DNA of 64,000 nt from an uncultured Gammaproteobacteria bacterium (GCA_964472415.1 CAYYLC010000003.1:96075-160074); one strand, 5' to 3'. Counted from the stretch's first letter, positions 1-56,276 are shown. The notes: generated by a model from the sequence alone, not told the origin. Program-made: numbers and translations.

Positions 1-999
1 CTTTGCAAGATGTGCAATTTTTGCAACAAGCACCGATTTGTTTACTTGATAAGGAAGTTGTGTAATGATGATTGCGCTCTTGCCTTGCCCAATTTCTTCG
101 ATATTTGCGATACCACGAATAATAATCTTTCCACGTCCAGTTTGATATGTATTAACTATTTCTGTTTGATCATAAATTGCTCCACCTGTTGGAAAATCTG
201 GTCCCTTTATAAATTCTAGAAGCTCATCGATTGTGACATTTGATGTTAGCGTTACTTTTTTACTGAGATAGTCCCCTTCCTCGATTGTTTGATAGGCAGG
301 CGTTTGCGCATCATTTGCCTCCCTCTCTTCCTCTTCAGCAATCTCATTAGCTGCTTCTTTCGGACTCTCTGCGTCTACCGTAATTTCTGCATTAAATTCA
401 GTTTTTGTGATCGTATATAGTACTGCATCCACTACCTCGCCCAGATTATGAGGTGGGATTTTTGTGGCCATACCGACTGCGATTCCTTCAGATCCAGAGA
501 GTAAAAGGTTTGGAATTTTTGCTGGCAGATACATTGGTTCTTTCATGGTGCCATCAAAATTATCGGTAAACTCTACCGTTTCTTTTTCTAAATCTTGGAG
601 CATTTCCATGGCAAGTGGCATGAGTTTTGCCTCAGTGTAACGCATAGCGGCTGGTGGATCTCCATCTACTGAGCCGAAGTTTCCTTGGCCGTTTACAAGC
701 GGATATCGCATGGAGAAATCTTGCGCGAGACGCACTAATGCATCGTAGATTGGGCCATCTCCATGCGGATGATATTTTCCCATTGCTTCTCCGACGATCT
801 TAGCGCTCTTTGCAAATTTCGCCTGTGGAGAAAGATTCATATCAGACATCGCATATAAAATTCTGCGGTGTACCGGTTTTAATCCATCACGAATATCAGG
901 AAGTGCACGAGAGACGATAACACTCATCGCATAGTCTAGATATGCTTTTTTCGCCTCTTTTGCGATCTCAACTACTTCTAGTTTTCCAATATCTTGCAT
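1..999 (-). CDS. gyrA: DNA gyrase subunit A, N-terminal part (runs off the window edge)
   Basis: Reverse-complement translation from the ATG at 999-997 gives [51 protein letters not shown]...GKYHPHGD...GQGNFGS, the canonical GyrA N-terminus with the active-site region. There is no stop in the window, so the ORF track does not list it. Confidence 0.9.
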
Positions 1000-35943: not shown

Positions 35944-35984
35944 ATCGTAGGAATTATACTATGCACAAGTAAGTGATTTCCACC

Positions 35985-36698: not shown

Positions 36699-36776
36699 CT
36701 GTTGCGTATTGTATCAGTTGACTATAGGTTTGTCAAGGGGTAAAACTACGGGATGTAGTGCCAATTTTGAGGCTAA

Positions 36777-37361
36777 TTAGAGATGTGTGGATATCTGTCC
36801 CATTACAAAATTAACTGTTTCTGCCCAGGATCCATTACTTACCGGGTTGTATTTTTTCATAATTTCCTCAGGACTTACAAGTCCGATTCCTACATATCGT
36901 TCTCCGAGTCCTTTTGAGACTGTAGTTATTGCCTCTGGGTAATCAGTGAAATAGGTAGTCTTTCCTCCGTAAATTCCATACCCCCAACAATTATGTGAGT
37001 GCTTGGGGATTTTATGGCATAAAGTACTTTCCTTCATAGCAATAGCTGGTACGAGTCTGTAATCTAACCCATGCTTATCAGCTTCTGTAACTATCAGCTC
37101 GGCATATGGTTTGAGGGGAGAATCATAGCGTGCAAAAAATTCTTCAAGTGCGGTGATTCTACTATCTGATGTAGTGATCATTCCATTTATCTCACGTGTC
37201 TCTTCTGGGAGTGCTTGGTATTTCGGTTTTTCAGCATAAATAATTGTTTTATGGAGGCTGTTAGAGCTAAATAGTGTCGTTAGAAGCGCTGCAGTGAGGA
37301 TTATAAAAACCAAGAATGAGCTTATGAAGTACCCTGCTATAAAAGCAATTCTCTTACCCAT
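36777..37361 (-). CDS. membrane-anchored glucosaminidase-domain peptidoglycan hydrolase, paralog 2
   Basis: N-terminal TM IAFIAGYFISSFLVFIILTAALLTTLF. ALEEFFARYDSPLKPYAELIVTEADKHGLDYRLVPAIAMKES...NCWGYG aligns with paralog 1 (ALEKVFERYNSPLKSAAPAYVALADKNGVDWKLLPAISGLES...NAYGWG). Confidence 0.55.
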   Translation of the reverse strand: MGKRIAFIAGYFISSFLVFIILTAALLTTLFSSNSLHKTIIYAEKPKYQALPEETREINGMITTSDSRITALEEFFARYDSPLKPYAELIVTEADKHGLDYRLVPAIAMKESTLCHKIPKHSHNCWGYGIYGGKTTYFTDYPEAITTVSKGLGERYVGIGLVSPEEIMKKYNPVSNGSWAETVNFVMGQISTHL

Positions 37362-37487
37362 ACTTTAATCTGTCATTTTCACGATTTAAAGTCAAGGTGT
37401 AAGACTACTAAAAACTGTTACATACTAATAGTTTACAATATTAAACAATTGTTTTGAGGTATGAATATTGATACAATTTGAGGGTAA

Positions 37488-37571
37488 GCCGGAGTGGCGA
37501 AATGGTAGACGCGCAGTGTTCAGAACGCTGTATCCTTTGCGGATGTGGAGGTTCGAGTCCTCTCTTCGGTA
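37488..37571 (+). tRNA. tRNA-Leu (anticodon CAG), class II
   Basis: gccggagtggcgaaatggtagacgcgcagtgttcagaacgctgtatcctttgcggatgtggaggttcgagtcctctcttcggta: acceptor with two G-U pairs, anticodon loop ttCAGaa, long variable arm, GGTTCGAGTCC T-loop. Confidence 0.8.
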
Positions 37572-37702
37572 CACTAAAGCCTAAGCTTTTTGACAGATTA
37601 TTTGGCTGGATTTTTTATAACTTAAAGATTATGGGGGATTTCTACCTGTATATTTGAGTTTTAAATCTTGCGAGCATACTAAAAGTTTATTATGATAAGT
37701 GT

Positions 37703-38017
37703 ATGGCGAAGGAATTTAGTCATTCAATTCGAACCGCTTACTTCTACCTCTTTTCTGCAATTGGCGTAATTCTTCTCATAGTTGGCGTTTTTAAATTATC
37801 AGACTTTACGGTAAAGCAGGTATTTTTAGATGAGTACTATCTTCCATACGAATCTGGGCGATGTAATTATCCACAGCCTCGTGAACAGTGCATGGAAGAG
37901 CTTAAGCGGGAACGAGATCTTAAAGAAGTGACCGATGTTTCAAGCTCAATTACATTTATTGTCGTTGGGTTATTGCTTTTTGGGTTTCATTATAAGAAAG
38001 CACGAAAGCTTTCTTAA
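37703..38017 (+). CDS. small membrane protein (104 aa, two TM segments, Cys pair)
   Basis: TM1 AYFYLFSAIGVILLIVGVF, TM2 ITFIVVGLLLFGF; lies between tRNAs. Confidence 0.4.
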   Translation: MAKEFSHSIRTAYFYLFSAIGVILLIVGVFKLSDFTVKQVFLDEYYLPYESGRCNYPQPREQCMEELKRERDLKEVTDVSSSITFIVVGLLLFGFHYKKARKLS

Positions 38018-38061
38018 TCTTGAGATTTAGCTTAAAATTCTCTATACTACTCTAGTCTTTT

Positions 38062-38134
38062 GCCGAGATTGCCAAGTTGGTCAAGGCGCGTGTCTGAAGA
38101 ACACGTTATCCGGGTTCGATTCCTGGTCTCGGCA
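38062..38134 (+). tRNA. tRNA-Phe (anticodon GAA)
   Basis: gccgagattgccaagttggtcaaggcgcgtgtctgaagaacacgttatccgggttcgattcctggtctcggca: acceptor gccgaga/tctcggc, anticodon loop ctGAAga. Confidence 0.85.
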
Positions 38135-38349
38135 CAGCGAAATTTCAAGACCTCTATTTTTCGCTCTGATGAAATCAGAGCTTCAGTATCCGGTCTGAAA
38201 TTTCGCCCCTTAATCCCGCTGTGCGGGATTACAGAAATGTTTTGCATTTTTGAGAAGTCGAGAATTTTAATTTTCGAAATAAGGAATAGTGACGAAGGGT
38301 AAAGATTTTAAATTTATTTAAAACCGCCAAGCGAGGTCCATGAGGACGC

Positions 38350-38421
38350 GCGGGAATAGCTCAGTGGTAGAGCGTCTCGTTGCCAACGAGAAGGTCGAGG
38401 GTTCGAACCCCTTTTCCCGCT
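38350..38421 (+). tRNA. tRNA-Gly (anticodon GCC)
   Basis: gcgggaatagctcagtggtagagcgtctcgttgccaacgagaaggtcgagggttcgaaccccttttcccgct: acceptor gcgggaa/ttcccgc, anticodon loop ttGCCaa, discriminator U. Confidence 0.85.
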
Positions 38422-38756
38422 CCGAAATCAGAAGTATTTGTTTCTGTACTCCAAATTCATTGATCATCCTCTATTTTTAGTATAAAAGCGGTAGCTTTGT
38501 GGTTATAATAAAAAGTTATAGGATTGTATTAAGACACACCACTAGATAGGTTTTATTCTTGTAGTGTTTACTAGTATTAGTTATTGAGTTTTTGTAAAAA
38601 ATCTATTCCTCTATAAGCTTGGGGGCAAGTTTTCGCTCCTTAATATAACTGAGAAGCACAAGTGCCAAAAAAATAAAGGAGAATATTTATTCCGGAAATT
38701 CCCACCATCTCTGATGTTAAGGGTTTAGTCAGAGATAAATAATCTAAATCGATTAG

Positions 38757-38830
38757 TGGACGATGAGGGATTTGAACCCCCGACACCCTCGGTGTAAACG
38801 AGGTGCTCTAGCCAGCTGAGCTAATCGTCC
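38757..38830 (-). tRNA. tRNA-Val (anticodon UAC)
   Basis: Reverse complement ggacgattagctcagctggctagagcacctcgtttacaccgagggtgtcgggggttcaaatccctcatcgtcca: anticodon loop ttTACac. Confidence 0.85.
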
Positions 38831-39021
38831 GAATTTCGGGAATGGATTTCGTACGGTTCATTTATGATACATCATAAATTGCGCCATTTTCATCATTCCT
38901 CCTTTATTCAAAAATACTTACGCATTTTTCAGAGTCACCCCGTTTAATGGGATGAGGTAGCAAGCTGACAAGTGTGTTCGAATCTAATCGAACTAAGCAT
39001 AAAGGTCTTGCCAGTTTTGCG

Positions 39022-39103
39022 GTGGGCTTGAGAGGACTCGAACCTCCACACCTTACGGCACAGCCACCTCAAGACTGCGTGTATACCAATTTCACCACAA
39101 GCC
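39022..39103 (-). tRNA. tRNA-Leu (anticodon GAG), class II
   Basis: Reverse complement gggcttgtggtgaaattggtatacacgcagtcttgaggtggctgtgccgtaaggtgtggaggttcgagtcctctcaagccca: anticodon loop ttGAGgt, long variable arm. Confidence 0.8.
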
Positions 39104-39240
39104 CGACTTACTTTCATATTGTAGCAAAAAATTATGAGAAAACAATTATATCCTATAAGACTTGACAAATAAATAAATATCATTACAATGTAACTTTTAA
39201 GGCTTTTTGAAAAGTTTTTGAAATACTGTATAAATAGATT

Positions 39241-42579: not shown

Positions 42580-42655
42580 TAATGATGTCTTCCTTGAAGC
42601 TGGGGTGCGTTTTTACTATAATTTACGGGTCCCACACTAAATATGGGTGCGTTTT

Positions 42656-42726
42656 TGCCGAGTCGTCTAATGGTAGGACAACGGACTTTGGATCCGTTTA
42701 TTCTGGTTCGAATCCAGGCTCGGCAG
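42656..42726 (+). tRNA. tRNA-Gln (anticodon UUG)
   Basis: tgccgagtcgtctaatggtaggacaacggactttggatccgtttattctggttcgaatccaggctcggcag: U1-A72 first pair and 3-bp D-stem typical of bacterial tRNA-Gln; anticodon loop ctTTGga. Confidence 0.8.
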
Positions 42727-44409
42727 CATGATTCTACTGATAGGCTGATAATCGATCAAATTGCTTGTTATTACGGCCTTTTCTGTAGGTTCTAACGCAA
42801 ATATAATGTCCTCGATTTCTCTCTTTGCTTTCTCTATAAGAAAATATGGCCTATCTCCTGAGATTTGGAGGCTTCGATCTAGAATTGTTAGGTTCGAACC
42901 AAGTTTTGACAAAATATAGGTTTTGGTTCTAACGTCACCTGTTTCAAACTGATATTTGGCACTGCAAGCGAAGTTAAATGTCTCTTTTGACTGGAAATAC
43001 CACTCCTCTTGTTTCTTGTCCACTGAGTCAATTTGCTTCATGACATCTTTTCTCTCTTTTAGTAGTCTTTCTTCCTCATCATCGTAGAACTTCTGCATTT
43101 CAGTACCATTCGTGACGTTTTCTCTTGAGATTCTAAGTCTCGTAAGCCGCGCAAGCGCTTTATCACAGTTTTCCATCTGTTTTACAAGGTTTTCTTTAAT
43201 ACTTCTAATGTCTGTTTCTTCTTTATCATTTAGTTCATTTAAGTGATCTATGCACCAATCGCGGAACTCTTCCGTTAATTCAAATTTGTTAAGCTCTGTT
43301 TTGATCTTATCTTCAAGATTTTTCAGTGTCACACTACCTTGAGAACAAGTCTTAGTAACTCTTTTTGTGCAGTGGTAGAACACATAATGCAGCAACTTTG
43401 GATTTTTCATTTCCTCAATTAAAGTGCCACATTTAGGACAAGCATTTGTCAGTTTTCCTTTATGGAACTTTTGCTTACAAGTTGAGCAGATTATTTGCAT
43501 CTTTTCCTCAGCAGTCACACTTCCGTCACATTCACCACATTTGAGAACATGCTTATATGCGAATTCATGTCGTGCCATACGTGGCTTGCCTTTGCGTCCT
43601 AAACGCACCTGTAGTGTGTCAAATTCATCTTCAGTGAGCATTGGCTTATGTGTTCCAAATACTTCTCCTTCAGATCGCACCATGAGGCCATAATAGTAAC
43701 TATCTGTGAGGATTCTGTACCATCCAGATTTTGCCATTGGCAAACCGCCTTTACTTCCTCTTGCTCTTGATCTAAATTTCCATTTGTTATTTAGAACATC
43801 TAATGCTTCCATTGGAGTATAAGTTCCATCAATAATCAATCTCATTGCATTTTGCAGTAATGGAAATCTTTCCTCATCCACGCCTATTTTCTTTTCCTTG
43901 GTGGCTTCATCATAGTAGTTGAAGTATCCTGGCTTGGCAGGGCCGATCCATTTTTTAAGGTTGTGGAATATGTAATGGTTACCACGCTTCACATTCTTAC
44001 TCAGATTCCTGGAGTATTGGTTTGCCATTCCAAAATGAATTTGCAGAATAAGGTGATCTGAATCCTGTGTGTATCTTTCACCGTCAGTACTTCGAATTTC
44101 TTGAAGCTTTCCATCTTGTAACAGCTGGAGAAGATGTCCACCTTCCATTGGATTGCGGCACAGTCTGTCTGGCTTCCAAGTAAGAATTGCATTTATCTTA
44201 CGAGCCTCAATGAGTTCAATCATTTTTGTGAACTCTGGCCTATTGTTTGGCTTATATGCAGATTTTGACTCTTGGAAGATATGAGTAACTGTCAAATTGT
44301 CTCTATCAACTGCTTTTTTACACTCCTCATTCTGCTCGTTAATAGACATCGCCTGTTTCTCTTTTGACTCTGATGACTTTCTTGAATATTGTGCGTATAC
44401 TAGTTTCAT
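42667..44409 (-). CDS. large serine recombinase (resolvase/invertase N-domain, recombinase domain, zinc ribbon)
   Basis: 580 aa; N-terminal catalytic region VYAQYSRKSSESKEKQ...IDRLCR; CGECDGS...CSTC and CPKCG zinc ribbon; coiled-coil C-terminus. The 3' end of the ORF runs into tRNA-Gln on the opposite strand. Confidence 0.8.
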   Translation of the reverse strand: MKLVYAQYSRKSSESKEKQAMSINEQNEECKKAVDRDNLTVTHIFQESKSAYKPNNRPEFTKMIELIEARKINAILTWKPDRLCRNPMEGGHLLQLLQDGKLQEIRSTDGERYTQDSDHLILQIHFGMANQYSRNLSKNVKRGNHYIFHNLKKWIGPAKPGYFNYYDEATKEKKIGVDEERFPLLQNAMRLIIDGTYTPMEALDVLNNKWKFRSRARGSKGGLPMAKSGWYRILTDSYYYGLMVRSEGEVFGTHKPMLTEDEFDTLQVRLGRKGKPRMARHEFAYKHVLKCGECDGSVTAEEKMQIICSTCKQKFHKGKLTNACPKCGTLIEEMKNPKLLHYVFYHCTKRVTKTCSQGSVTLKNLEDKIKTELNKFELTEEFRDWCIDHLNELNDKEETDIRSIKENLVKQMENCDKALARLTRLRISRENVTNGTEMQKFYDDEEERLLKERKDVMKQIDSVDKKQEEWYFQSKETFNFACSAKYQFETGDVRTKTYILSKLGSNLTILDRSLQISGDRPYFLIEKAKREIEDIIFALEPTEKAVITSNLIDYQPISRIMLPSLDSNQNKRIQSPLSYH

Positions 44410-44451
44410 TTTCTAAATTCTCCTATATATAAATTTTACCGCTATTTGAGG

Positions 44452-44970
44452 CTAAAAGTCAGCCTTTTCTGTTCGTAATGGTTTATCTTTCCAATTCATT
44501 TGCTTTATAAGTTTCTTTCTCCATACTTCATATTTCGCTTGACTCATCTTTTCATTTCGTTTTATTCCATTTGTATTATTAGTAGGAAGTATATTTCCTG
44601 GATGGAGTGGAACTTTAGTTCCTAAATGAGAGGAATTTCCATTCCTAATGCTTGAACCACTTTTTGCTTTTGAAGGTAAATCTCTTGTACTCTTCAAATT
44701 CCTGTGAACTGTATATGTATTCACTCGATTCCATCCTTCTCTTTTTATTTCAATCAATCCTTCCTTTTTTAGTTGCTTTAATAGAATTCTAATGTTTCTA
44801 TCACCGCATCCTAAAATTGCAGCAAGTGTTGTTTGTCCAGGAAAGCATGACTCTTTTTGATAACAATGTTTGAGCAATACAATGTATAAGAATCTTGCTT
44901 GAACTGAGAGCTGAGACACATCTAATAGTTCGTTTGGAACCATAGTAAAGTTTTTGCGTTTCATATTCAT
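44452..44970 (-). CDS. winged-helix HTH protein (replication-initiator or transcriptional-regulator-like)
   Basis: 172 aa; FTMVPNELLD...LSVQARFLYIVLLKHCYQKESCFPGQTTLAAILGCGDRNIRILLKQLKKEGLIEI resembles phage/plasmid replication HTH domains. Confidence 0.5.
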   Translation of the reverse strand: MNMKRKNFTMVPNELLDVSQLSVQARFLYIVLLKHCYQKESCFPGQTTLAAILGCGDRNIRILLKQLKKEGLIEIKREGWNRVNTYTVHRNLKSTRDLPSKAKSGSSIRNGNSSHLGTKVPLHPGNILPTNNTNGIKRNEKMSQAKYEVWRKKLIKQMNWKDKPLRTEKADF

Positions 44971-45133
44971 TTTTTTGGAATTGGTTTATAGATCAACTTG
45001 AAAAATTCCAACAACTCAACACCAAGTTCATTGGCCTGTTCATCACTTAGCTGAATACCAAACTTTAGGAAGTAAATTACCTTGAATTCGTCGATTGCTT
45101 TTTTGCTCAGTCTCATCATGTCTACATTGTGTT

Positions 45134-45147
45134 AGAAATGATGGAAC
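45134..45147 (+). repeat. island motif copy (agaAATGATGGAAc), partial
   Basis: Matches the AATGATGGAA core of the motif; opens an 18-codon ORF MMELKELQ.... Confidence 0.35.
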
Positions 45148-45186
45148 TTAAAGAGCTACAGAAAGTTGGAGATTATTTGTACACCA

Positions 45187-45960
45187 CTATTTGAGAAGAT
45201 TTTTGTATCTGCGGACTGCTTGTTTTACCATTTCATACTCTGGAATTGCATATCTATTGCGGTTCTTCTCATATTCCAATCTATTGGCCGGTGATGTTGC
45301 GGATAAGGCAATATCTGTATATCCTATGCCTTCAATATTCATCCAATACCATTCACGATCTCGTCTGAAATTGCCAGCCTTCCTATTCTTCATTCGATAG
45401 TAGTAGTTAAGTAACTTCATATGAGATTCAAAGATGTCAGGTACATTCTTTTCAAAGACTTCCTGTACATCTTTAAGTGTTGTCATTGGAGTTATGACAA
45501 TTTTTACTTCAGGTAAATCTGTATATTCTGGAGGCTTGGGTGGATCAGTTGGTTCTACTTCAATCTTTGTGTGTTGATAGCTGAAATCTCCAACAACACC
45601 ACACGCTAAAGCAAACTGAATTATCTGAGTGAAATATCCAGGCTTTTTGAATCTTTTGCATAGCTCTACTGAATCTTCTTCAAACTTCCAGAATGGCCTA
45701 TTTGTACTTCTCCATTCAAAATCTTTTGTGTCTTCAAGTGTTTGAATATCTTCATCTAGCAGTTTTATTGTCCACTTCATGAATTCCGATTCTGACATTA
45801 ACGAATTTATTCCATGCTTCTTTCTGTATTCAGGAAGCAGTCTCAGAAACTCTGGCTTATCAACAAGTAGTGCAACATCCATGTATGCAATATCATTGGT
45901 ACATTTGATGTCTATCTTTAAGTCCAGCAAATCTTTATTGTCTGCAATTCTCATTCTCAT
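45187..45960 (-). CDS. hypothetical protein (257 aa), island-borne
   Basis: Long ORF upstream of the HTH gene; no recognisable motifs. Confidence 0.4.
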   Translation of the reverse strand: MRMRIADNKDLLDLKIDIKCTNDIAYMDVALLVDKPEFLRLLPEYRKKHGINSLMSESEFMKWTIKLLDEDIQTLEDTKDFEWRSTNRPFWKFEEDSVELCKRFKKPGYFTQIIQFALACGVVGDFSYQHTKIEVEPTDPPKPPEYTDLPEVKIVITPMTTLKDVQEVFEKNVPDIFESHMKLLNYYYRMKNRKAGNFRRDREWYWMNIEGIGYTDIALSATSPANRLEYEKNRNRYAIPEYEMVKQAVRRYKNLLK

Positions 45961-46210
45961 CTTTATTTTACTTGATGGGGGTGGCCATTTTACATGGAAG
46001 GATTATAACCAATTTGGTTAGATGCCTCTAAAATTTGCACCTATGCTGGTTAATATCTCAGCTTATGTAGAGTACCAAAGAATATTTATGCAGAGATATA
46101 AAAGCAGCATGTGAGCATTTGCTCTTACTCTTTTCATTTAAGGCTAGGAACTCTTTCAAGACTCTCTGTTATTAGAGGAAATCATTATTTCTAATAGGTG
46201 AATTATCTAC

Positions 46211-46234
46211 TTTTAATCAGGAATGATGGAATGT
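46211..46234 (+). repeat. island motif copy ttttaatcaggaatgatggaatgt
   Basis: Its ATGATGG provides the ATG of the 46223 Xis-like ORF. Confidence 0.5.
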
Positions 46235-46480
46235 TTAATCTCTGGTATTTTGATGTTCAATTTAGTACAATTAAGCTCAACTAATATGAACGCAGAGCTT
46301 GAAGAGCTTATATCTATCCAAGAGGCAGCAAGGATTTTGAATGTCAACGTTCAAACTCTGAGGAGATGGGACAGAACAGGTGTTCTCAAAGCAGTTCGTG
46401 TAGGTACTCGGAAAGGTGTTGGTGACAGACGATACCGCAAGAGTGATATTGAGGCTTATTTGTCACGAAATAAAAAATAA
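46223..46480 (+). CDS. excisionase/MerR-like HTH DNA-binding protein
   Basis: ISIQEAARILNVNVQTLRRWDRTGVLKAVRVGTRKGVGDRRYRKSDIEAYL is a helix-turn-helix of the Xis/MerR (HTH_17) type. Start could be the internal MNAELEE at 46289. Confidence 0.6.
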   Translation: MMECLISGILMFNLVQLSSTNMNAELEELISIQEAARILNVNVQTLRRWDRTGVLKAVRVGTRKGVGDRRYRKSDIEAYLSRNKK

Positions 46481-46504
46481 GCACCAAAGAGAATTAAGAA
46501 AATT

Positions 46505-47413
46505 ATGGCATTATTTACAATTACTAATAATAAGGCATCGAAAATTGCACCGATTAAAGTTGGGCTGGAGAAAGATGTACAAAAGATATTCGAAGAGAAT
46601 CTAAATGAGATTTTGAATATAACTTTTCTTGCCACTGAATACTCTACAAGTTTTGGAGGGAGAATTGATTCTCTCGGAATTGATAATAATGGTGCACCAG
46701 TCATTATTGAATATAAACGTAACCATAATGACAATGTAATCAACCAAGGCCTTTCATATCTTCGATGGTTACTAGATCATAAAGCAGATTTTGATGTATT
46801 AGCACATAAAGTAAATCCAGAAATTGAGATTGACTGGAATTCTCCACGAGTCATTTGTGTGGCTGAGAGTTATAACAAATTTGATCTGGATACTGTTGAA
46901 CTTCTTCCAATTAACATTGAACTTTTGAGATATAAAATTTATCAAAACAATCTCCTACTAGTAGAGCCAGAAACACAACAAAAAGTACGTATCTCAACCT
47001 CAAAAATTTTCAATAAAGAAAAACAAGAGAAATCAATTGGAGAAAAAGTCACTTACAAATTAGAGGATCATCTATCTGGTATCAGTTCGAAAGCAAAGGA
47101 AATATTTGAAGAGGTAAATGAAAAAATTGTTGCACTTGATGAGTCAATTATTGTTGAGCCAAAAGCGAAATATATTGCCTATAAATTGACAACAAATTTT
47201 GTTGATATTGTTGTAAAGCAATACGGCCTCAAAATTTTTCTAAATGTTCCAAGTGGTGAACTGAATGATCCTCATGGTATGGCACGTGATCTCACAAAGC
47301 CAAAACCTATTGGACACTGGGGTAATGGAGACTACGAAGTAAAAATTGAAACACAAGAGGATATAGAAAAAGTATTTGATCTAATCAAGCAAAGTTATTC
47401 ATTCAATAAATAA
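46505..47413 (+). CDS. PD-(D/E)xK-type nuclease (restriction-endonuclease-like N-domain with DUF5655-like C-terminal region), candidate R subunit
   Basis: GRIDSLGIDNNGAPVIIEYKR is a D...(D/E)xK core. The stop at 47413 lies 3 bp from the methyltransferase start (translational coupling). Confidence 0.5.
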   Translation: MALFTITNNKASKIAPIKVGLEKDVQKIFEENLNEILNITFLATEYSTSFGGRIDSLGIDNNGAPVIIEYKRNHNDNVINQGLSYLRWLLDHKADFDVLAHKVNPEIEIDWNSPRVICVAESYNKFDLDTVELLPINIELLRYKIYQNNLLLVEPETQQKVRISTSKIFNKEKQEKSIGEKVTYKLEDHLSGISSKAKEIFEEVNEKIVALDESIIVEPKAKYIAYKLTTNFVDIVVKQYGLKIFLNVPSGELNDPHGMARDLTKPKPIGHWGNGDYEVKIETQEDIEKVFDLIKQSYSFNK

Positions 47414-47415
47414 AT

Positions 47416-48504
47416 ATGAGTTCAAAATCATTAAATTCAAATTTACACAAAGCAAGTAAAGCAAAAAAGGATGAGTTTTATACTCAACTTACAGATATTG
47501 AAAAAGAGCTTCGACACTATAAAGATCAATTCAAAGGCAAAGTTGTTTACTGCAACTGTGATGATCCTTTCGAAAGTAACTTCTTCAAATACTTCGCTTC
47601 CAATTTCAACGCACTAGGACTTAAAAAACTAATAACTACTAGTTTTTCAGGCTCACCAATCACTGGAAAGCAACTTTCTCTATTGGACATGGAAGGACTA
47701 AAACCTAAAGGAAAACAGCCATTCAAGATTGAGATTACTAATGTACCAGACAAGAATACTGATGGTGCTATCGACTTAACAGATGTGGAATGGCTATTAA
47801 AACAAGACACGAATGTATCCACTCCTCTTAAAGAAAGCGGAGACTTTAGAAGTGAAGAATGTATAGACTTACTCAAGCAATCAGATATTGTGGTAACTAA
47901 TCCACCATTCTCACTCTTTCGAGAATATATTGCTCAACTTATTGAGTATGAAAAAAAGTTTTTGATTATCGGAAATTTGAATGGAATAAGCTATCAAGAA
48001 ATATTTAAGTTAATCCAAGGCAATAGGCTTTGGCTAGGTTACAATAATGGACACAAAACTTACTTAGTTCCAGATTATTATGAGCAAAAGAATATATATG
48101 TCGGTGAGGATGGTAAAAAGTATGCCAAAATGGGAAATACAGGATGGTTTACAAATCTAGATATTAGCAAACGTCACGAAATGCTTACTCTTTATAAAAG
48201 ATATAATCCGCAAGACTTTCCACAGTACGACAACTATGACGCAATTGAAGTATCAAAAGTATTAGAAATTCCGTTAGATTATAATGGCATTATGGGTGTG
48301 CCAGTAACATTTCTTGACAAATATAATCCAGAACAATTTGAAATATTAGGGATTACTGATAGAAATCCTAAGAGCAAATATAGAACAAAAATGTATACCA
48401 AGGCTGACTCACCAATGTATAACGACTTAAACAGACGTGCAGCAATTAAATTTGATGGTAAATTAAAACCTACATATGCTCGATTGCTGATAAAGAAAAA
48501 ATGA
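47416..48504 (+). CDS. N6-adenine (or N4-cytosine) DNA methyltransferase
   Basis: DEFYTQL N-terminal motif, catalytic motif IV VVTNPPFS (NPPF), candidate AdoMet-binding region KVVYCNCDDPFES. Confidence 0.7.
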   Translation: MSSKSLNSNLHKASKAKKDEFYTQLTDIEKELRHYKDQFKGKVVYCNCDDPFESNFFKYFASNFNALGLKKLITTSFSGSPITGKQLSLLDMEGLKPKGKQPFKIEITNVPDKNTDGAIDLTDVEWLLKQDTNVSTPLKESGDFRSEECIDLLKQSDIVVTNPPFSLFREYIAQLIEYEKKFLIIGNLNGISYQEIFKLIQGNRLWLGYNNGHKTYLVPDYYEQKNIYVGEDGKKYAKMGNTGWFTNLDISKRHEMLTLYKRYNPQDFPQYDNYDAIEVSKVLEIPLDYNGIMGVPVTFLDKYNPEQFEILGITDRNPKSKYRTKMYTKADSPMYNDLNRRAAIKFDGKLKPTYARLLIKKK

Positions 48505-48505
48505 T

Positions 48506-49609
48506 ATGAAAATTGAATTACACAAAATAAAAGTTCGTGAAGTGGTTGAAGGATACAAAGACAATGCTGAAGAAGGTGTTGTAGGATATGGTGGCGAACT
48601 TGATATTCGCCCTAAGTATCAGCGTGAATTCGTTTACAAAGACGCTCAGCGTGATGCAGTGATAGATACTGTCAAGAATGGCTTTCCTCTTAATGTCATG
48701 TATTGGGTAGTGCGTGAAGATGGTGGATATGAAGTCCTTGATGGACAGCAACGCACAATCTCGCTTGCACAATATGTAAATGGAGACTTTTCCATAGACT
48801 TTAATGGTAGGCTGGCAATGTTTCATAACTTAACTCCAGAAGAACAAAACCAGATTTTAGATTATGAGTTGATGATCTACTTTTGTGAAGGTACAGACAA
48901 AGAACGCCTTGATTGGTTTAGGATCATTAACATTGCTGGTGAGAAATTAACAGATCAAGAATTGAGAAATGCAGTATATACAGGGCCATGGCTTTCTGAC
49001 GCAAAACTTAAATTCAGTAAATCAAATTGCGTAGCATATCTTCTTTCAAATGACGGAGGTGCGTTACTCTCTGGATCACCAATAAGACAGGAATATTTAG
49101 AAACAGTACTTTCGTGGATCAATAATGGTGCAATTGAGGATTATATGGCACGTCATCAACATGATGAAAATGCCGATGAGCTATGGAATTATTTTCAAGA
49201 AGTAATCGCTTGGGTGAGAAAAACATTCTCAAACTACAGAAGAGAGATGGCAAGCGTGAATTGGGGTGAACTATACAATCAATTCAAGGATCATGAACTA
49301 AATCCTGAAAAACTGGAAGCTGAAATAAAAGTACTCATGCAGGATGAAGATGTTACAAAAAAGAGCGGTATTTATCCTTACGTTTTGACTCGTCTTGAAA
49401 AATATCTATCTATTAGAGCTTTTACTGACAAAATGAGACGAGAGGCATATGAGAGGCAAAATGGCGTATGTCCATTCTGCAAAAATAAATTTGAAATTGA
49501 AGAAATGGAAGCAGATCATATTACTCCATGGCATGAAGGTGGAAAAACAACTGCTGACAACTGTCAAATGCTTTGCAAACAAGATAATAGAACAAAATCT
49601 GGTGTGTAA
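48506..49609 (+). CDS. DUF262 (ParB/GmrS-like NTPase) - HNH endonuclease fusion, GmrSD-like candidate type IV or modification-dependent nuclease
   Basis: N-terminal DUF262 with DGQQRT motif; C-terminal HNH CPFCKNKFEIEEMEADHITPWHEGGKTTADNCQMLCKQDN. Start 2 bp after the methyltransferase stop. Confidence 0.65.
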   Translation: MKIELHKIKVREVVEGYKDNAEEGVVGYGGELDIRPKYQREFVYKDAQRDAVIDTVKNGFPLNVMYWVVREDGGYEVLDGQQRTISLAQYVNGDFSIDFNGRLAMFHNLTPEEQNQILDYELMIYFCEGTDKERLDWFRIINIAGEKLTDQELRNAVYTGPWLSDAKLKFSKSNCVAYLLSNDGGALLSGSPIRQEYLETVLSWINNGAIEDYMARHQHDENADELWNYFQEVIAWVRKTFSNYRREMASVNWGELYNQFKDHELNPEKLEAEIKVLMQDEDVTKKSGIYPYVLTRLEKYLSIRAFTDKMRREAYERQNGVCPFCKNKFEIEEMEADHITPWHEGGKTTADNCQMLCKQDNRTKSGV

Positions 49610-49656
49610 GTTGTATTGAATTAAAAATATGCTAAATCTGCCTATTATTACGAATA

Positions 49657-51273
49657 ATGAAAATATCGAAAATTATTGTTCAGAACTATAGATCAATTGA
49701 AAGGGTTGAGGTTAATCCAAGCAAATTTTCCATCTTTATCGGACAAAACAATCACGGCAAAACAAATTTCTTTGAGGCAATTGAATGGTTCTACAATTCC
49801 AAGTCATCAAATGAAGAAGAATATTGTAGAAAAGATTCAGACAATAAAATTCAAGTTGAGATAACTTTTGATGATGTTCTAGAAACAGACATTGAAAAAC
49901 TTACTTCTGATACCAATAAAACTAAAATTAGAAATATTTTGAATGGCTCTACTTCATTCTCTGTAATCAAATCAAGTACAGATCATAAAAGAAAATACTT
50001 TGTTAATGGTGAAGATAAAGGTAATCCTCAAGGACTAGACACTGCCATCAATGAATTTTTACCTAAGCTCGAATATGTTAATACTTCAATAAGATTAAAT
50101 GACGTTTCAAAATACAAAGACAGAAATCCTATTGGAACAATGCTTTCTGGCGTTCTCACTGCCATTATTGAAACATCACAAGACTACATTGAATTTAAGC
50201 AAACCTTCACAAAGTTATTTGACAATGCAGACTCAGAAGTTAGAAAAGAGCTTGATAAGTTAGGCGGACAAGTTGAAGTATATCTTCAGAAACAATTTCC
50301 AGGTGATACTAAGGTAAAGTTTGGTGTTAATCCACCTCATTTTACTGACTTATTAAAAAGTTTTGATACATCAATAAATGATGGAATTGAAACAACTGCT
50401 GAGGCAAAAGGTGATGGTATGCAAAGAGCAATAATGCTTTCAATTATCCAAGCATTTGCTGACTATCGTAAGAAGCAAATTGGTGGTGGAACTTTTCTGT
50501 TTATGATTGATGAAGCGGAATTGCACCTTCATCCAACTGCACAACGTTCTCTAAAGAATGCCTTATTAGACATATGTCAAACAGATCAAGTACTGGTAAA
50601 TACTCACTCCTCTGTTTTGGTTGTTGATAACAATGAACTTCAGAAGATTTTCAAGGTTGAAAAAACTGATGGAGTAACAAATATAGATGAGGTTGATGAT
50701 CTTGAGAAGATAAACATTATCTTCGAATTACTTGGTGGAAGTCCTTCCGATCTATTATTGCCAAGGAACTTTCTAATAGTAGAAGGAAAATGTGAATACG
50801 AATTCATCAAAATCATTATTGAACGTTATTATCGTGACAAATTTGATGGAATTAAGGTTTTATTTGCTGGAGGTGACTTGGATGAGCAAGAATCATCATT
50901 GCTCGCAGTCCACAAACTCTTTAATCCATTAGCTGGATCAGACAATCCAATTTATAAGGAAAGAGCTATTGTTTTAATAGACAAGCAAAATGGAGATCAG
51001 CAACATAAATTTGAAGCTTTTAAGCAAGGTTATCCTTATTTATTCAGCAATAATCATGTTTTTGAATTAACTACTACAACTCTGGAAGAATATTATCCAG
51101 ATGCATATAAGAAGAATGCTGCTGAGATCGCTCAACTGCAAGCAGACAGAAAAAAAGTTGAATATGCTAAAGAAGTTGCGTCAAAGATTACACAAGAGGA
51201 ATTTGAAAATGATATGCAGATAATATTCCAAGCACTTACTAAGTGTAATGAATGCGCTTTTAATCCGAAATAA
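49657..51273 (+). CDS. OLD-family protein: ABC/AAA_15-type ATPase with C-terminal TOPRIM-like nuclease region
   Basis: IVQNYRSIE...FIGQNNHGKTNFFEAIEWF (GxNxxGKT Walker A of the OLD/AAA_15 type), Q-loop region, Walker B/D-loop FLFMIDEAELHLHP, then FLIVEGKCEYEFI...VLIDKQNGD consistent with the TOPRIM conserved Glu and DxD. Confidence 0.7.
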   Translation: MKISKIIVQNYRSIERVEVNPSKFSIFIGQNNHGKTNFFEAIEWFYNSKSSNEEEYCRKDSDNKIQVEITFDDVLETDIEKLTSDTNKTKIRNILNGSTSFSVIKSSTDHKRKYFVNGEDKGNPQGLDTAINEFLPKLEYVNTSIRLNDVSKYKDRNPIGTMLSGVLTAIIETSQDYIEFKQTFTKLFDNADSEVRKELDKLGGQVEVYLQKQFPGDTKVKFGVNPPHFTDLLKSFDTSINDGIETTAEAKGDGMQRAIMLSIIQAFADYRKKQIGGGTFLFMIDEAELHLHPTAQRSLKNALLDICQTDQVLVNTHSSVLVVDNNELQKIFKVEKTDGVTNIDEVDDLEKINIIFELLGGSPSDLLLPRNFLIVEGKCEYEFIKIIIERYYRDKFDGIKVLFAGGDLDEQESSLLAVHKLFNPLAGSDNPIYKERAIVLIDKQNGDQQHKFEAFKQGYPYLFSNNHVFELTTTTLEEYYPDAYKKNAAEIAQLQADRKKVEYAKEVASKITQEEFENDMQIIFQALTKCNECAFNPK

Positions 51274-51276
51274 ATT

Positions 51277-52032
51277 ATGTCTCAATACTACAATCCAAAT
51301 CGAAAAAGAAACCTGTACGATCCTCACTCACCTGAGTTATTCCGCTTGAGTCGAGGAAAGATTGATAACTTCATCAATTGTCCACGGTGTTTTTATTTGG
51401 ACAGGCGTCTTGGTGTTGGACAGCCGCCAGGTTATCCATTTTCGCTCAATTCTGCAGTTGATAAGCTCTTGAAGAAAGAATTTGATGTTCATAGAGTAAA
51501 TGGCTCAAAACATCCACTGTGCGATAAATATGGTGTTGATGCAGTTCCGCTATCACACGATAAGATTGATGAATGGCGTGACTCTTTAAGAGGTGGAATT
51601 ACAGTTCACATTGACAGCACGAATGTTGTCATTACTGGTGGCGTGGATGATATTTGGATTTCACCAGAAGGTGAATACATTATTGTTGACTACAAGGCCA
51701 CATCTAAAGATGGTGAAGTATCACTGGATGCTGACTGGCAAATTGGATATAAGCGGCAAATGGAAATATATCAATGGCTTTTTAGGAAAAATGGCTTCAA
51801 AGTGGCTGATACTGGATATTTTGTCTACTGTAATGGAAATACTGACAAAGAAGCATTTGATGGAATGCTTGAATTTGAGATCAAACTCATTCCATACACT
51901 GGTAACACAGATTGGGTAGAAAAGACGATCCTGGACGCAATCAGGTGCCTCCAGAGCGATGTTTTACCTGAGCCTGGACAGGATTGTGACTTTTGTAAAT
52001 ACAGACAAGCTGTGAAGGAATTTGAAGATTAA
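51277..52032 (+). CDS. Cas4/RecB-like PD-(D/E)xK nuclease with four Cys (CxxC at each end)
   Basis: NCPRCFYLD (N-terminal CxxC), GGVDDIW...EGEYIIVDYKAT (D...E...DxK), KRQMEIYQWL (QxxxY motif of the RecB nuclease family), C-terminal CDFCKY. Start 3 bp after the OLD-like gene stop. Confidence 0.65.
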   Translation: MSQYYNPNRKRNLYDPHSPELFRLSRGKIDNFINCPRCFYLDRRLGVGQPPGYPFSLNSAVDKLLKKEFDVHRVNGSKHPLCDKYGVDAVPLSHDKIDEWRDSLRGGITVHIDSTNVVITGGVDDIWISPEGEYIIVDYKATSKDGEVSLDADWQIGYKRQMEIYQWLFRKNGFKVADTGYFVYCNGNTDKEAFDGMLEFEIKLIPYTGNTDWVEKTILDAIRCLQSDVLPEPGQDCDFCKYRQAVKEFED

Positions 52033-52139
52033 ATAGGGCTGGGTCGTGGTGAAAACACCACCTCGGCTTGTTCCGCTGACACCTTAAATCAATTTGCTAC
52101 ATCACGCCTCGCTGGTGTTTTTACCACATTTCTTAATAG

Positions 52140-52166
52140 TTTTAATCATAATGATGGAATTCATCC
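52140..52166 (+). repeat. island motif copy ttttaatcataatgatggaattcatcc
   Basis: Lies between the Cas4-like gene and the small membrane peptide gene. Confidence 0.5.
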
Positions 52167-52207
52167 TGTCATTTGAGATACTATTGAATAAGTAAGGAGG
52201 TGAAAGT

Positions 52208-52396
52208 ATGAATTTTAAGAAATTTGACATGATAGATATTGGATTCACTAAGCTTTCGGTTATGTGTTTCACTTTATTTGCTGTTTCTGCATTTCCAGGA
52301 CTCGCTGAATGGATCACAAACACATCTTGGATGCTATTTCTAGTCGTGAGCCTAGTATTTGCCATCAAACCAGTTATGAAGGTATTCAAGAAGTAG
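52208..52396 (+). CDS. small membrane peptide (62 aa)
   Basis: Strong RBS taaggaggtgaaagt-ATG; two hydrophobic helices; immediately upstream of the CPBP protease gene. Confidence 0.5.
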   Translation: MNFKKFDMIDIGFTKLSVMCFTLFAVSAFPGLAEWITNTSWMLFLVVSLVFAIKPVMKVFKK

Positions 52397-52420
52397 TTTT
52401 AATCAGAAATGATGAAATTG
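52397..52420 (+). repeat. island motif copy ttttaatcagaaatgatgaaattg
   Basis: 33 bp upstream of the CPBP protease start. Confidence 0.5.
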
Positions 52421-52452
52421 AACTGGTTTTGATATACTTTCATTATTAACAA

Positions 52453-53334
52453 ATGAAATTATCTAAGTATCAGCTACCTATTTTCTTCTTCCTTGCTTTT
52501 GCCATCACTTGGACTGCGCAAATCACAGCATATTTATATGCATTTCCAAACGACATAAATCTTACCAATGAATCCAATTTCCTAAATTTTGTGAATATTG
52601 GCGGTTTGCCGCCTGGCTTTCTTCCATACTTGCTTCTTTTCTCCTTCTCTTTCGGGCCAACGGTTGCTGGAATCATTGTTACTTACTGGTTTTATGGCAA
52701 TAAAGGCATGCGAGGAATACTTGATCAACTATTCGCGATTAGATTGCCTGGTAAATGGTATTTATTGGCAATAACAATTCCAGTTGGACTTGTACTTGCA
52801 AGCCTTTTGCTAGGCTTTGTCTTAAGTGGCTTTCAGTCAATTCAGTATGAGTTTCTTGTTCCATTGTCTCTATTTATTCCATTCTTCCTGTATATGACTA
52901 TATTTACAGGACTTGCGGAGGAAGTTGGTTGGCGAGGATATGCGCTTCCACAGCTTCAAAAAAAATATACTGCTGAGAAAGCAAGCTGGATATTAGGTAT
53001 TGCATGGGGACTTTGGCATTTACCTGTAAATCTGATGGTGCCATTTCTGTCAGGCAATTTACAAATACCATATATTGTGATGATCCTACTCGCGTTAACT
53101 CTTGGTATTGCAGGTTGGACAATTGTCCTTACATGGTTTTATAACAACACAAAGAGTCTCTTTCTCATCATATTCATTCATGGATTTATGAATACACTTC
53201 AGTCATATCTCATATTGTCCTCTAACAATCAGATTGCACCTATGCTTTATGGCATACTGCCATGGATAGTAGCAACATATCTTTTGAAAAAGTACGGAGG
53301 TAAGACACTATTGGTTCCTTCGAATAAACAGTGA
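52453..53334 (+). CDS. CPBP-family intramembrane glutamic protease (CAAX protease / Abi domain)
   Basis: Multi-TM protein with EEVGWRGY (EExxxR), FxxxH (LWHL) and HGFMN motifs. Confidence 0.75.
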   Translation: MKLSKYQLPIFFFLAFAITWTAQITAYLYAFPNDINLTNESNFLNFVNIGGLPPGFLPYLLLFSFSFGPTVAGIIVTYWFYGNKGMRGILDQLFAIRLPGKWYLLAITIPVGLVLASLLLGFVLSGFQSIQYEFLVPLSLFIPFFLYMTIFTGLAEEVGWRGYALPQLQKKYTAEKASWILGIAWGLWHLPVNLMVPFLSGNLQIPYIVMILLALTLGIAGWTIVLTWFYNNTKSLFLIIFIHGFMNTLQSYLILSSNNQIAPMLYGILPWIVATYLLKKYGGKTLLVPSNKQ

Positions 53335-53346: not shown

Positions 53347-53802
53347 ATGAATATAAAAAGCCTTTGGAGTAAAATAAACAGTCGATTACAGAAACAGTGG
53401 ATTGCGTGCAGACTGGTATCAGATAGGAAAAGTGTTCAATATGGCATTCGCTTTAGCTATCCGCTCTTCATAGCAATTGTATTAATAAGTATATTTCTGG
53501 AAAATCCTTTTATATTACTATTTGCTGCTCTGATTGCTTTTTTTGGCATGAAATTACCATTACATCCTTTTGACTATGTTTATAGCTATGGAATTGCGAA
53601 GCTAATAGGAGTTAATAAAATACCTGGTAGAGGATCAGAGTTGCAGGTTAACAGTATTGTGGCGCTTATATTTACCTTGTTTGTAAGTGTTTTGATACTT
53701 TTTAGAGTTCCAATCAATTATTCTATGCTTGCTATTATTTATCTTGTGAGCAATATCTTCATACTTGGAATGTTCTTGATAAAGAAGGATTCAAGGAAGT
53801 AA
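53347..53802 (+). CDS. hypothetical polytopic membrane protein (151 aa)
   Basis: Four hydrophobic segments; follows the CPBP gene by 12 bp. Confidence 0.4.
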   Translation: MNIKSLWSKINSRLQKQWIACRLVSDRKSVQYGIRFSYPLFIAIVLISIFLENPFILLFAALIAFFGMKLPLHPFDYVYSYGIAKLIGVNKIPGRGSELQVNSIVALIFTLFVSVLILFRVPINYSMLAIIYLVSNIFILGMFLIKKDSRK

Positions 53803-53816: not shown

Positions 53817-53912
53817 TTTAATCAGCAGTGATGGAATTCATCAAAAACTAGGCTGAAAAGCAGGTTGGAATGGTTGTTTTGTATTGATAAAATAGGTTCT
53901 AACAGCGTCTAC
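53817..53912 (+). repeat. ~95-bp direct repeat, left copy (ttttaatcagcagtgatggaattcatc ... aatggttgttttgtattgataaaataggttctaacagcgtct)
   Basis: Contains the island motif plus a second conserved block; a similar copy lies at 56008-56092 on the other side of the surface-protein gene. Confidence 0.6.
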
Positions 53913-53974
53913 TAGACACAGCTGAGTAAGCTTTCAAGCCTTGGTTACATTTGGCTAATCTAAAGAGGCATACT

Positions 53975-56007: not shown

Positions 56008-56092
56008 ACATCATCAGGAACGATGGAAACCAAAAGAATACTCACAAAAATGGTTGTTTCATATTGATAAAATAGGTTCTAACACTGTCTGC
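56008..56092 (+). repeat. ~90-bp direct repeat, right copy (catcaggaacgatggaaacc ... aatggttgtttcatattgataaaataggttctaacactgtct)
   Basis: About 75-80 percent identical to 53817-53912; the block ATTGATAAAATAGGTTCTAACA is identical in both. Confidence 0.6.
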
Positions 56093-56276
56093 CAAGCACA
56101 ACAAAGCCCATCAACACCGCTGCTGTTTGTAATTTACGATACTGAAAAACTTCTGGAAATAGAATAGAATCATTCCATGACTACTTTTTCCTATTTATTA
56201 TAGGTAGCTTATTGTTACTCGTGTTTTTAATCTATCTATCATATTTCTAAATAGATAAATTAAGGAGGTGATACAT

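Follow-up and report, generated by a model that had tools for sequence, protein, structure and literature searches.

Why does the gene for a large serine recombinase (LSR) end inside a tRNA gene? In a 64,000-nucleotide (nt) stretch of DNA, here called the window, that is filed under an uncultured Gammaproteobacteria bacterium (GCA_964472415.1, CAYYLC010000003.1:96075-160074), the integrase gene int runs antisense through most (61 nt) of an intact 72-nt tRNA-Gln(UUG) gene. An earlier note on this DNA had described a serine recombinase that ends within the opposite-strand tRNA-Gln and overlaps its 3' end; the open reading frame (ORF) and the ARAGORN and Rfam calls agree on this, and the overlap extends beyond the 3' end. 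We propose that the DNA from 42728 to ~53918 is very probably an integrated, non-viral mobile element of 11.2 kb, driven by the LSR and inserted at the end of the tRNA-Gln gene (Table 1), and we hold the integration model with high confidence.

The 580-residue product of int (Int) is a bona fide LSR, in which a resolvase-type domain, a recombinase domain and a zinc ribbon with a coiled-coil insert are all present; Pfam, PHROG and AlphaFold/Foldseek bear out the domain make-up given in the earlier note. Pfam Resolvase (PF00239) matches residues 7-143 (4e-20), the PHROG scan aligns residues 5-515 with the integrase family phrog_95 (1e-45), a PDB profile search matches the catalytic domains of the TP901-1, SPbeta and phiC31 integrases, and PF07508 and PF13408 are present in homologs. 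In the AlphaFold (AF2) model (mean predicted local distance difference test score, pLDDT, 81.8), residues 160-270 form an alpha/beta domain, residues 289-376 a beta-rich Cys region and residues 380-490 long helices; its best Foldseek matches are the full-length SPbeta, phiC31, Bxb1 and LI integrases, over ~550 columns (E 1e-16 to 1e-13); identity to solved integrases is 13-18%. The ORF is full length and keeps the catalytic Y8-R10-S12 motif and eight Cys residues, all invariant among 33 homologs, and the window Int presumably catalyses attP x attB recombination. The eight invariant Cys lie in the zinc-ribbon region (Int residues 291-355, window 43343-43540) and make up a double zinc ribbon in this clade; four Cys are usual in LSR zinc-ribbon domains.

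The tRNA overlap in the integrase family and at the host locus

Is the overlap of int with the tRNA a matter of chance? An integrase profile scan of one genome per GTDB species gave 79 loci, which with the window and two metagenome loci make a set of 82. Fifty-eight of these have a called tRNA at the same codon of int, seven have an intron-split tRNA, seven are cut at contig ends and ten give no tRNA signal; the tRNA 3' end thus falls at the same int codon in 65 of the 75 non-truncated loci (58 called plus seven intron-split). For 52 of the 58 called tRNAs, which are all on the opposite strand, the 3' end departs from the predicted position by 0 to -2 nt. Since 58 of 82 homologous loci abut a tRNA at the same codon and seven more abut a split one, the overlap is not a chance event. 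ARAGORN missed the tRNAs of the seven loci (L102, L110, L059, L065, L069, L093 and L107) because group I introns interrupt them; the int-adjacent tRNAs there have Asn-like 3' halves, and in L102 (11732-11983) and L110 (11613-11838) the introns match Rfam RF00028 with 71.4 and 64.4 bits. The 58 called tRNAs represent nine identities: Asn (16), Ser (15), Gln (14), Met (6), Trp (3) and a single case each of Glu, Leu, Asp and His. In only 24 of 42 cases does the closest integrase neighbour share the tRNA type, and in 18 of 42 it uses a different one, which argues for repeated target switching.

In the window, the last 19 codons of int and its stop codon (LPSLDSNQNKRIQSPLSYH and stop) are the exact antisense of the tRNA from nt 73 back to nt 12. 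G73 of the tRNA is base 42726 and C74 is base 42727, and CCA is not encoded, as in this genus; codon M561 is the reverse complement of 42727-42729 and lies over tRNA positions 74-76, where CCA would stand. The tail encoded by antisense tRNA ranges among homologs from 3 residues (in L002, which ends in LLRS) to more than 20, and many of the C-termini of 60 aligned homologs finish in SW(L/R)R(D/G)RDSNP, in which W is TGG, the antisense of CCA, and DSN is GATTCGAAC, the antisense of the T-loop. The seemingly conserved W(L/R)R(D/G)RDSNP tail is therefore an annotation artefact, being antisense tRNA. With one half-site of attP (P) placed inside the 3' end of int, the ORF after integration continues into the antisense tRNA as far as a chance stop, and in the reconstructed circular form the window Int would instead terminate in SRIM-LCLVDAVRTYFINTKQPFQPAFQPSF. 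AlphaFold predicts Int residues 543-580 to be disordered, and the host-encoded antisense-tRNA tail is probably disordered and irrelevant in the protein. The predicted disorder fits a stretch that is constrained as recombination-site DNA rather than as protein.

Which organism carries the element? The window is one stretch of a 192-kb metagenome contig. Almost all of the 82 loci are from Patescibacteria, and the integrase homologs bear the names Woesebacteria, Levybacteria, Daviesbacteria and WWE3, from which we take the host of the window to be a Patescibacteria member of the Microgenomates group (Candidate Phyla Radiation, CPR). Many GTDB records of metagenome-assembled genomes (MAGs) in the range L035-L113 that have a CPR-type integrase and tRNA bear titles such as Gammaproteobacteria, Pseudomonadales, Thermococci or Pedobacter; these records are probably mislabelled or the MAGs mis-binned.

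To whom does the tRNA gene belong? Orthologs of the flanking amylase gene were used to trace the tRNA-Gln locus in relatives. In L235-L241 (amylase identity 81-85%), tRNA-Gln(UUG) lies at the same place beside the amylase gene, and neither a recombinase nor any other element gene occurs within 8-10 kb downstream of it. The earlier note had named two observations that would speak against an integrated element, namely the same genes at this locus in relatives that have no recombinase, and the lack of an overlap with a functional tRNA; the relatives lack the recombinase together with every other element gene, and the overlapped tRNA-Gln is intact and belongs to the host. That the tRNA-Gln should instead be part of the element, with an int/tRNA overlap internal to it and no junction there, is a notion prompted by the constant company of int and tRNA and by L077, which has a complete tRNA copy at both element ends. 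We regard it as extremely improbable and reject it: element-free relatives keep tRNA-Gln beside the amylase gene, the 5' and 3' strands of the acceptor stems co-vary with the host and not with the int lineage, and the similarity between the window and the related element L037 stops at the core, with int in L037 followed by an element outer arm (P') and no tRNA.

Past tRNA-Gln, each relative has DNA of its own, in no case syntenic with the window, which marks the locus as a hypervariable hotspot. L240 (~7700-7850) and L241 carry, downstream of tRNA-Gln, a displaced pseudo-copy of its 3' half with a ~36-nt insert in the T-loop, the trace of a different, earlier insertion at the same hotspot. A metagenome scan with the tRNA-Gln 3' half returned 80 loci, mostly from unrelated bacteria; L123 and L185, which have an identical tRNA, were discarded as empty sites, as neither is syntenic with the window. 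On the other side of the gene, GGGTGCGTTTTT is present twice, 43 nt apart, just upstream of tRNA-Gln (42602-42656), positions 42594-42622 contain a good sigma-70-like promoter (TTGAAG, 17 nt, TATAAT), and seven more tRNA genes (Val, Leu x3, Phe, Gly, Val), with a T5orf172/MUG113-family gene among them, are spread over the 8 kb left of the element (31246-39104).

Element ends and the architecture of the attachment sites

Where does the element end? A tyrosine-type right end would be a long repeat of the tRNA, and this was ruled out: no repeat of tRNA-Gln of at least 11 nt occurs elsewhere in the 64-kb window, and only the 4-nt CAGC is repeated. We find the right end through a different signal, the 20-nt motif GTTAGAACCTATTTTATCAA, which is present twice in the window as an exact match, against 0.01 occurrences expected by chance even with 3 mismatches. 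The same motif stands at the far ends of the elements L077 (a complete Levyibacteriota chromosome, CP066685.1) and L037. Family-wide, a motif of this type lies upstream of int, and a short stretch identical to the last 3' bases of the cognate tRNA is found at a constant distance of 15 nt from it. Among the 18 motif hits with at most 3 mismatches at loci with a tRNA at the int end (12 loci, five tRNA identities), 14 are preceded at the exact offset by the reverse complement of nt 74-71 of the cognate tRNA, and the same 4-mer test at shifted control positions succeeded in 0 of 108. The 4-mer at the junction is GCGG in Ser loci, GCTC in Asn loci, GCTG in Gln loci, GTTG in Met loci and GTGC in Leu loci, and the shared identity reaches 4-9 nt.

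Two further lines of evidence place the ends at the same positions. In a blastn comparison with the L037 element, which lies in another genomic context and has an Int 89% identical over the high-scoring segment pair, DNA similarity to the window stops at 42723 and at 53915. The G+C content is 0.354 within 42728-53918, compared with 0.394 on the left side and 0.424 over the 2.2 kb that follow on the right. The right boundary, which the earlier note had found not obvious, is thus mapped at 53918/53922, and the shared core is only 4 nt. Because the boundary is there, and not at ~46480 or ~56.2 kb, the cargo takes in the defence operon, the CAAX protease and the DUF4395 gene.

Could the mobile unit be smaller? 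Three closely related elements (L035, L036 and L002; Int 81-88% identical) resemble the window at the DNA level only from 42655 to ~46510 (blastn), and by these alignments this block is a conserved core with variable DNA beyond it. One might then suppose that only the core (42728 to ~46510) moves and that the defence operon up to 53.9 kb is host DNA or an unrelated island. We consider this very improbable and have set it aside. No P'-type half-site or core repeat lies near 46.5 kb, while a P' arm with the matching CAGC lies at 53.9 kb; in the relatives that could be delimited, the variable cargo is always found between the Xis-like gene and the P' arm; the low G+C content continues up to 53.9 kb; and the relatives with an empty locus have none of these genes.

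What would Int recognize? The half-sites of 13 strictly matched junction pairs were aligned on their core. In the tRNA-side arm, B', GGA occupies +9..11 and TTCGAACC occupies +12..19; in the element outer arm, P', GGA is again at +9..11 and TTAGAACC is at +17..24. With GGA in the same place and the second motif, TT(C/A)GAACC, at +12..19 in B' and +17..24 in P', P' amounts to B' with 5 nt inserted between the motifs, an offset seen on the B'/P' side only. In the Listeria LI/A118 integrase, the zinc-ribbon motif lies at positions 16-24 in attP and 11-19 in attB, whereas the binding position of the recombinase domain does not differ between the two (PMC3783163). To judge from the aligned junctions, the 5-nt B'/P' offset matches this published shift. 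The inner motif favours a crossover symmetry centred on nt 71-72 and the outer motif one on nt 72-73.

We propose that Int would recombine attP with a host attB whose centre is formed by the last bases of the tRNA-Gln(UUG) gene, crossing over inside CAGC (tRNA nt 71-74). This core presumably contains the crossover dinucleotide, and only 4 nt would be duplicated at the ends. The tRNA up to the crossover would stay host-derived, and an identical discriminator base, C74 and a 3' trailer would be re-supplied by the element. The host half-site would be the 3' strand of the acceptor together with the T-arm, whose universal sequence is GGATTCGAACC; the recombinase domain would read GGA and the zinc-ribbon domain would read TTCGAACC, an assignment of domains to motifs in which we have moderate confidence. 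The outer half-site of attP would contain both motifs as well, set 5 bp further apart (GGAcgnnGTTAGAACC), a known way for serine integrases to tell attP from attB, and the inner half-site of attP would lie inside the 3' end of int. The predicted attB junction is GGCTCGG-CAGC-TGAGTAAGC (longer form CTGGTTCGAATCCAGGCTCGGCAGCTGAGTAAGCTTTCAAGCC), and the predicted attP junction is CTAGACA-CAGC-ATGATTCT (longer form GGTTCTAACAGCGTCTACTAGACACAGCATGATTCTACTGATAGGC).

The inner arm of attP, P, has in many homologs the motif GGTTTTGAACC (codons G-F-E-P) at attP-type spacing; it is degenerate in the window lineage. Near it, at 42788-42796 (int codons 539-541), near-invariant L-E-P codons spell GTTAGAACC, a 9-mer of the P' outer motif. 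This copy, ~60 nt inside int, may reflect coding constraint or an accessory binding site.

The right-hand flank, tandem arms and mobility

Which observations does the integration model not accommodate? First, the second P' arm at 56064-56102, whose core CAAC is 1 nt off CAGC, lies beyond the LysM gene and has no place in the model; with this arm present, the DNA beyond 53922 may be an older remnant and not native to the host. Second, L077 is flanked by a perfect 95-bp repeat that includes the whole tRNA-Ser(UGA), which a 4-nt core does not predict. Third, an attP-like junction occurs within a longer contig at five of the ten loci without a tRNA signal (L037, L046, L063, L071 and L072). Fourth, the zinc-ribbon-type motif in the P arm is weak in the window lineage (5/9 match), and a conserved motif sought in the B arms across the family junction pairs was not found, so that the half-site model is demonstrated on one side only. 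Fifth, no relative examined has an empty site with a matching B arm (53923 onward), the tRNA-Gln site is occupied also in other assemblies of the same strain, and no excised circle is evident in the assemblies. All of these count against the 11.2-kb element as we describe it.

The LysM/fn3 gene (53975-55924, minus strand, G+C 0.424) is bracketed by attR and the orphan P' arm. By its position and spacing, the stretch 53923-53950 is putatively either the original tRNA 3' trailer or an arm of an older remnant. The segment 53923-56102 may be an older or int-less module, and the orphan P' arm probably marks an older or int-less insertion. Does the insertion then reach the second arm (42728-56098, 13.4 kb), or is this a tandem array with an older or int-less LysM module, such that the DNA from 53923 onward is not the native attB arm? 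The second exact 20-nt motif with its 15-nt inner arm (56064-56098) speaks for such an arrangement, as do the multiple P' arms or internal attP-like junctions of L037, L070, L069, L098 and L110, and no relative has the LysM gene beside tRNA-Gln. Nevertheless, the core of the second arm is CAAC, not CAGC, the G+C content of the LysM segment is 0.424 against 0.354 in the element, and the arm right of 53922 has attB-type spacing, unlike the int 3' end. We judge the larger or tandem insertion unlikely, if a serious contender. The two readings make different predictions: an older LysM remnant predicts an empty site in which tRNA-Gln is followed by AAAGCCCATC and a cupin gene, with CAGC/CAAC-AAAGCCCATCAAC as the alternative predicted attB, whereas a native arm predicts TGAGTAAGC and LysM.

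Several P' arms at one locus are found also in L070, L069, L098 and L110. In L037 (~11680-13265), the int 3' end passes via GCTG into a P'-type arm, an attP-like junction, which is followed by a 1.5-kb module (ORFs of 331 and 96 residues and a degenerate int-end-like arm) and then by tRNA-Gln; the module looks like a tandem or int-less mini-element. Together, the multiple arms and the L037 junction suggest tandem accretion by non-canonical site pairings or mobilisation of mini-elements in trans, an idea we hold with moderate confidence. In the more distant homologs L046, L063, L071 and L072, int is followed by the core, 15 nt and a GTTCGAAC-type arm, again an attP-like junction, in large contigs without a tRNA within 10 kb; two of these MAGs are labelled Aminicenantes. 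The direct repeats of the 5.5-kb L077 element (6098-6192 and 11689-11783; CP066685.1) consist of tRNA-Ser(UGA) plus 7 nt, and the element adjoins tRNA-Ser(GCT), which has the same 3' end. We speculate that both tRNA-Ser genes were used as attB and that the copies then recombined.

Does the 11.2-kb element move? Integrases 83 and 81% identical to the window Int lie at tRNA-Gln with unrelated flanks in L036 and L002. The past mobility of the int lineage is supported by this combination of one tRNA-Gln target with unrelated genomic contexts, as far as the compared sequences go. The other assemblies of the same strain are 99.9% identical, with a contig end inside int, and a terminal-overlap test for circular contigs was negative at 15 whole-contig loci. 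The element may still be mobile today.

The alternative is a decayed prophage or a domesticated recombinase (an invertase or resolvase), with the tRNA overlap as a fossil. It gains something from the lack of observed mobility in this strain's available assemblies, and from those distant homologs that have an intact attP-like site in a large contig with no tRNA nearby. We nonetheless find it quite improbable. Int is full length with its catalytic motif and eight Cys intact, both att junctions are intact, and near-identical int lineages at tRNA-Gln in unrelated contexts argue for recent movement. Moreover, no virion or packaging family was found in any ORF of 42.7-53.9 kb (Pfam for all ORFs, PHROG for the core genes). 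The earlier note had allowed for an integrative element or a prophage remnant; the junctions and the family comparison uphold the former, and the absence of virion genes disposes of the latter. In IMG/VR, the integrase profile found no close relative (best match 35% identity, partial), and neither a free phage form nor an attP was obtained there.

Cargo, related systems and significance

What does the element carry? The gene order that the earlier note had given downstream of int, a winged-helix protein (HTH_36), a 257-residue protein, an Xis-like HTH protein and a defence operon, is confirmed by Pfam, PADLOC and PHROG, with an additional 50-residue ORF (Table 1).

Table 1. Features of the element and its flanks, with window coordinates and the evidence for each.
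Feature	Position	Strand	Evidence or remark
tRNA-Gln(UUG), host gene, 72 nt	42656..42727	plus	ARAGORN; Rfam tRNA 62.4 bits against a 29-bit threshold
Large serine recombinase (integrase, int)	42667..44409	minus	580 aa; last 19 codons are antisense tRNA
B' half-site of attL (tRNA acceptor 3' strand and T-arm)	42684..42723	plus	half-site matrices; GGA and TTCGAACC at +9..+19
attL core CAGC (tRNA C71 A72 G73 C74)	42724..42727	plus	identical 4-mer at attR
P half-site of attP	42728..42767	minus	inside the last ~13 element-encoded int codons; region predicted disordered
HTH_36 winged-helix protein, like a replication-initiator N-domain	44452..44970	minus	PF13730 3.9e-9; phrog_270, phrog_186, phrog_678 ~1e-13
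Conserved 50-aa ORF, core module	44967..45119	minus	gene call in L001; counterparts in L002, L077
Orphan 257-aa core protein	45187..45960	minus	no family match
HTH_17/MerR-type excisionase-like protein	46223..46480	plus	Pfam 8.6e-13; phrog_66 1.8e-11
PDC-S18 candidate defence protein (DUF5655, NucS-like), cargo	46505..47413	plus	PADLOC 3e-98; Pfam
Type II N6-adenine methyltransferase (EcoRI-methylase family), cargo	47416..48504	plus	Pfam 4.9e-142; PADLOC MTase_II 4.8e-124
Type II restriction endonuclease (GmrSD_N/DUF262 and HNH), cargo	48506..49609	plus	PADLOC REase_II 1.2e-143; Pfam
OLD-family ATPase/nuclease, cargo	49657..51273	plus	PADLOC Old 2.3e-62; Pfam AAA_15 7.4e-31
Cas4-like PD-(D/E)XK nuclease, cargo	51277..52032	plus	Pfam 4.7e-14; PADLOC Cas4 8e-11
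CAAX/Rce1-like protease, cargo	52453..53334	plus	Pfam; inside mapped boundaries
DUF4395 protein, cargo	53347..53802	plus	Pfam; inside mapped boundaries
P' half-site of attR	53884..53918	minus	GTTAGAACCTATTTTATCAA (53884-53903) and 15-nt inner arm (53904-53918)
attR core CAGC	53919..53922	plus	repeat of attL core, directly after the 15-nt inner arm
Putative B half-site	53923..53950	plus	TTCAAGCC at attB-type spacing from core; from sequence only
Orphan second P' arm	56064..56102	minus	same 20-mer (56064-56083), 15-nt inner arm to 56098, CAAC

Besides int, the element has a small core module (the replication-initiator-like HTH protein, two proteins of no known kind and the Xis-like HTH protein) and a variable cargo slot with anti-phage defence genes. 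The 257-residue protein matches nothing in Pfam, PHROG, PADLOC or PDB folds and has only 25 homologs among 5.8 billion clustered proteins. The HTH_17 gene, divergently transcribed and close to the end (~46510) of the block conserved between related elements, is by family and position a candidate directionality factor or regulator. Sixteen other elements delimited by the same att rule measure 3.8-11.3 kb and have variable cargo, in which OLD nucleases (4) and methyltransferases of the C5, N6/N4 and D12 kinds (7 altogether) recur, along with HpaII and Mrr endonucleases, Vsr and ResIII helicases.

How does this compare with known systems? To our knowledge, textbooks and databases (e.g., Islander) treat tRNA genes as targets of tyrosine integrases only, with serine integrases using protein-coding or intergenic sites. 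A serine recombinase at a tRNA gene had accordingly struck the earlier note as unusual, and serine is indeed the only recombinase type in the 11.2-kb element by Pfam, PHROG and fold. Tyrosine-integrase islands at tRNA or tmRNA genes (Islander-type, P4-like) likewise use the 3' part of the tRNA gene and keep it functional, and they share with the window element an int beside the tRNA, an Xis-like HTH protein, a hotspot with tandem remnants and defence cargo. However, those islands leave a displaced tRNA fragment of tens of nt and cross over in the anticodon or T loop, whereas the window clade duplicates 4-9 nt and the window element would cross over at nt 71-74. Measured against the Islander definition, the element has an intact tRNA after integration, and it has neither a tyrosine integrase nor a displaced tDNA fragment.

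The phage-type LSRs (Listeria A118/LI Int, SPbeta SprA, phiC31 Int and Bxb1 Int) have the same domain order as the window Int, with a coiled coil in the zinc ribbon, similarly short att sites with few shared crossover bases, and a zinc-ribbon motif 5 bp further out in attP than in attB, as here. In these systems attP adjoins int, as it does in the window element, where the two also overlap. Their targets are protein-coding genes or intergenic sites and not tRNA 3' ends. With the T-arm as proposed attB half-site, the eight-Cys double ribbon and a non-viral carrier of 4-11 kb, the window clade differs from them further. SCCmec, moved by the Ccr LSRs, is likewise non-viral and carries cargo; it sits at the very 3' end of a conserved housekeeping gene (rlmH/orfX), which is not inactivated, and tandem or composite arrays occur in SCCmec and related elements. 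It differs in its protein-coding target, its usually two Ccr proteins, its antibiotic-resistance cargo and its Firmicutes hosts, and the comparison with the window Int is one of shared LSR fold alone. Similarly, the tycheposons of Prochlorococcus, likened here by description only and as far as passages of the preprint describe them, are small cargo elements at tRNA genes of streamlined genomes with replication-type genes; they overwhelmingly use tyrosine recombinases and leave partial tRNA repeats. An LSR is encoded by 27 of 937 of them, and those passages do not show the LSR-bearing ones to target tRNA ends (bioRxiv 10.1101/2020.12.28.424599). The text of a large LSR survey makes no mention of tRNA (PMC10083194). 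The open-access full-text literature yielded no account of LSRs that target tRNA genes, nor of the present CPR elements, and an earlier description elsewhere is possible. The evidence supports an LSR clade (the window and ~65 sister loci) that consistently targets the last bases of tRNA genes, with the fold and mechanism of a serine integrase and a distinctive class of target.

Finally, we tentatively propose, at somewhat short of even odds, that an LSR clade spread across the Patescibacteria uses the conserved T-arm as its zinc-ribbon motif with crossover at the discriminator end, moves between tRNAs by its inner half-site contacts and gives rise to tandem accretion. As all tRNAs share the outer motif, a change of the inner contacts alone would take the clade to another tRNA species. 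The mechanism is testable, with the T-arm as the attB zinc-ribbon motif and its 5-bp-shifted counterpart in attP, and the clade may offer serine integrases with a natural attB in every genome that has a matching tRNA. The att rule, [tRNA nt 74-71][15 nt][GTT(A/C)GAAC], delimits small CPR elements and their defence genes to the base, which is otherwise very hard in MAGs. If the proposal is true, loose constraints on the B arm would allow tandem accumulation of elements and int-less modules at a single tRNA, and the clade would constitute a cassette-accretion system that stocks minimal genomes with defence genes.

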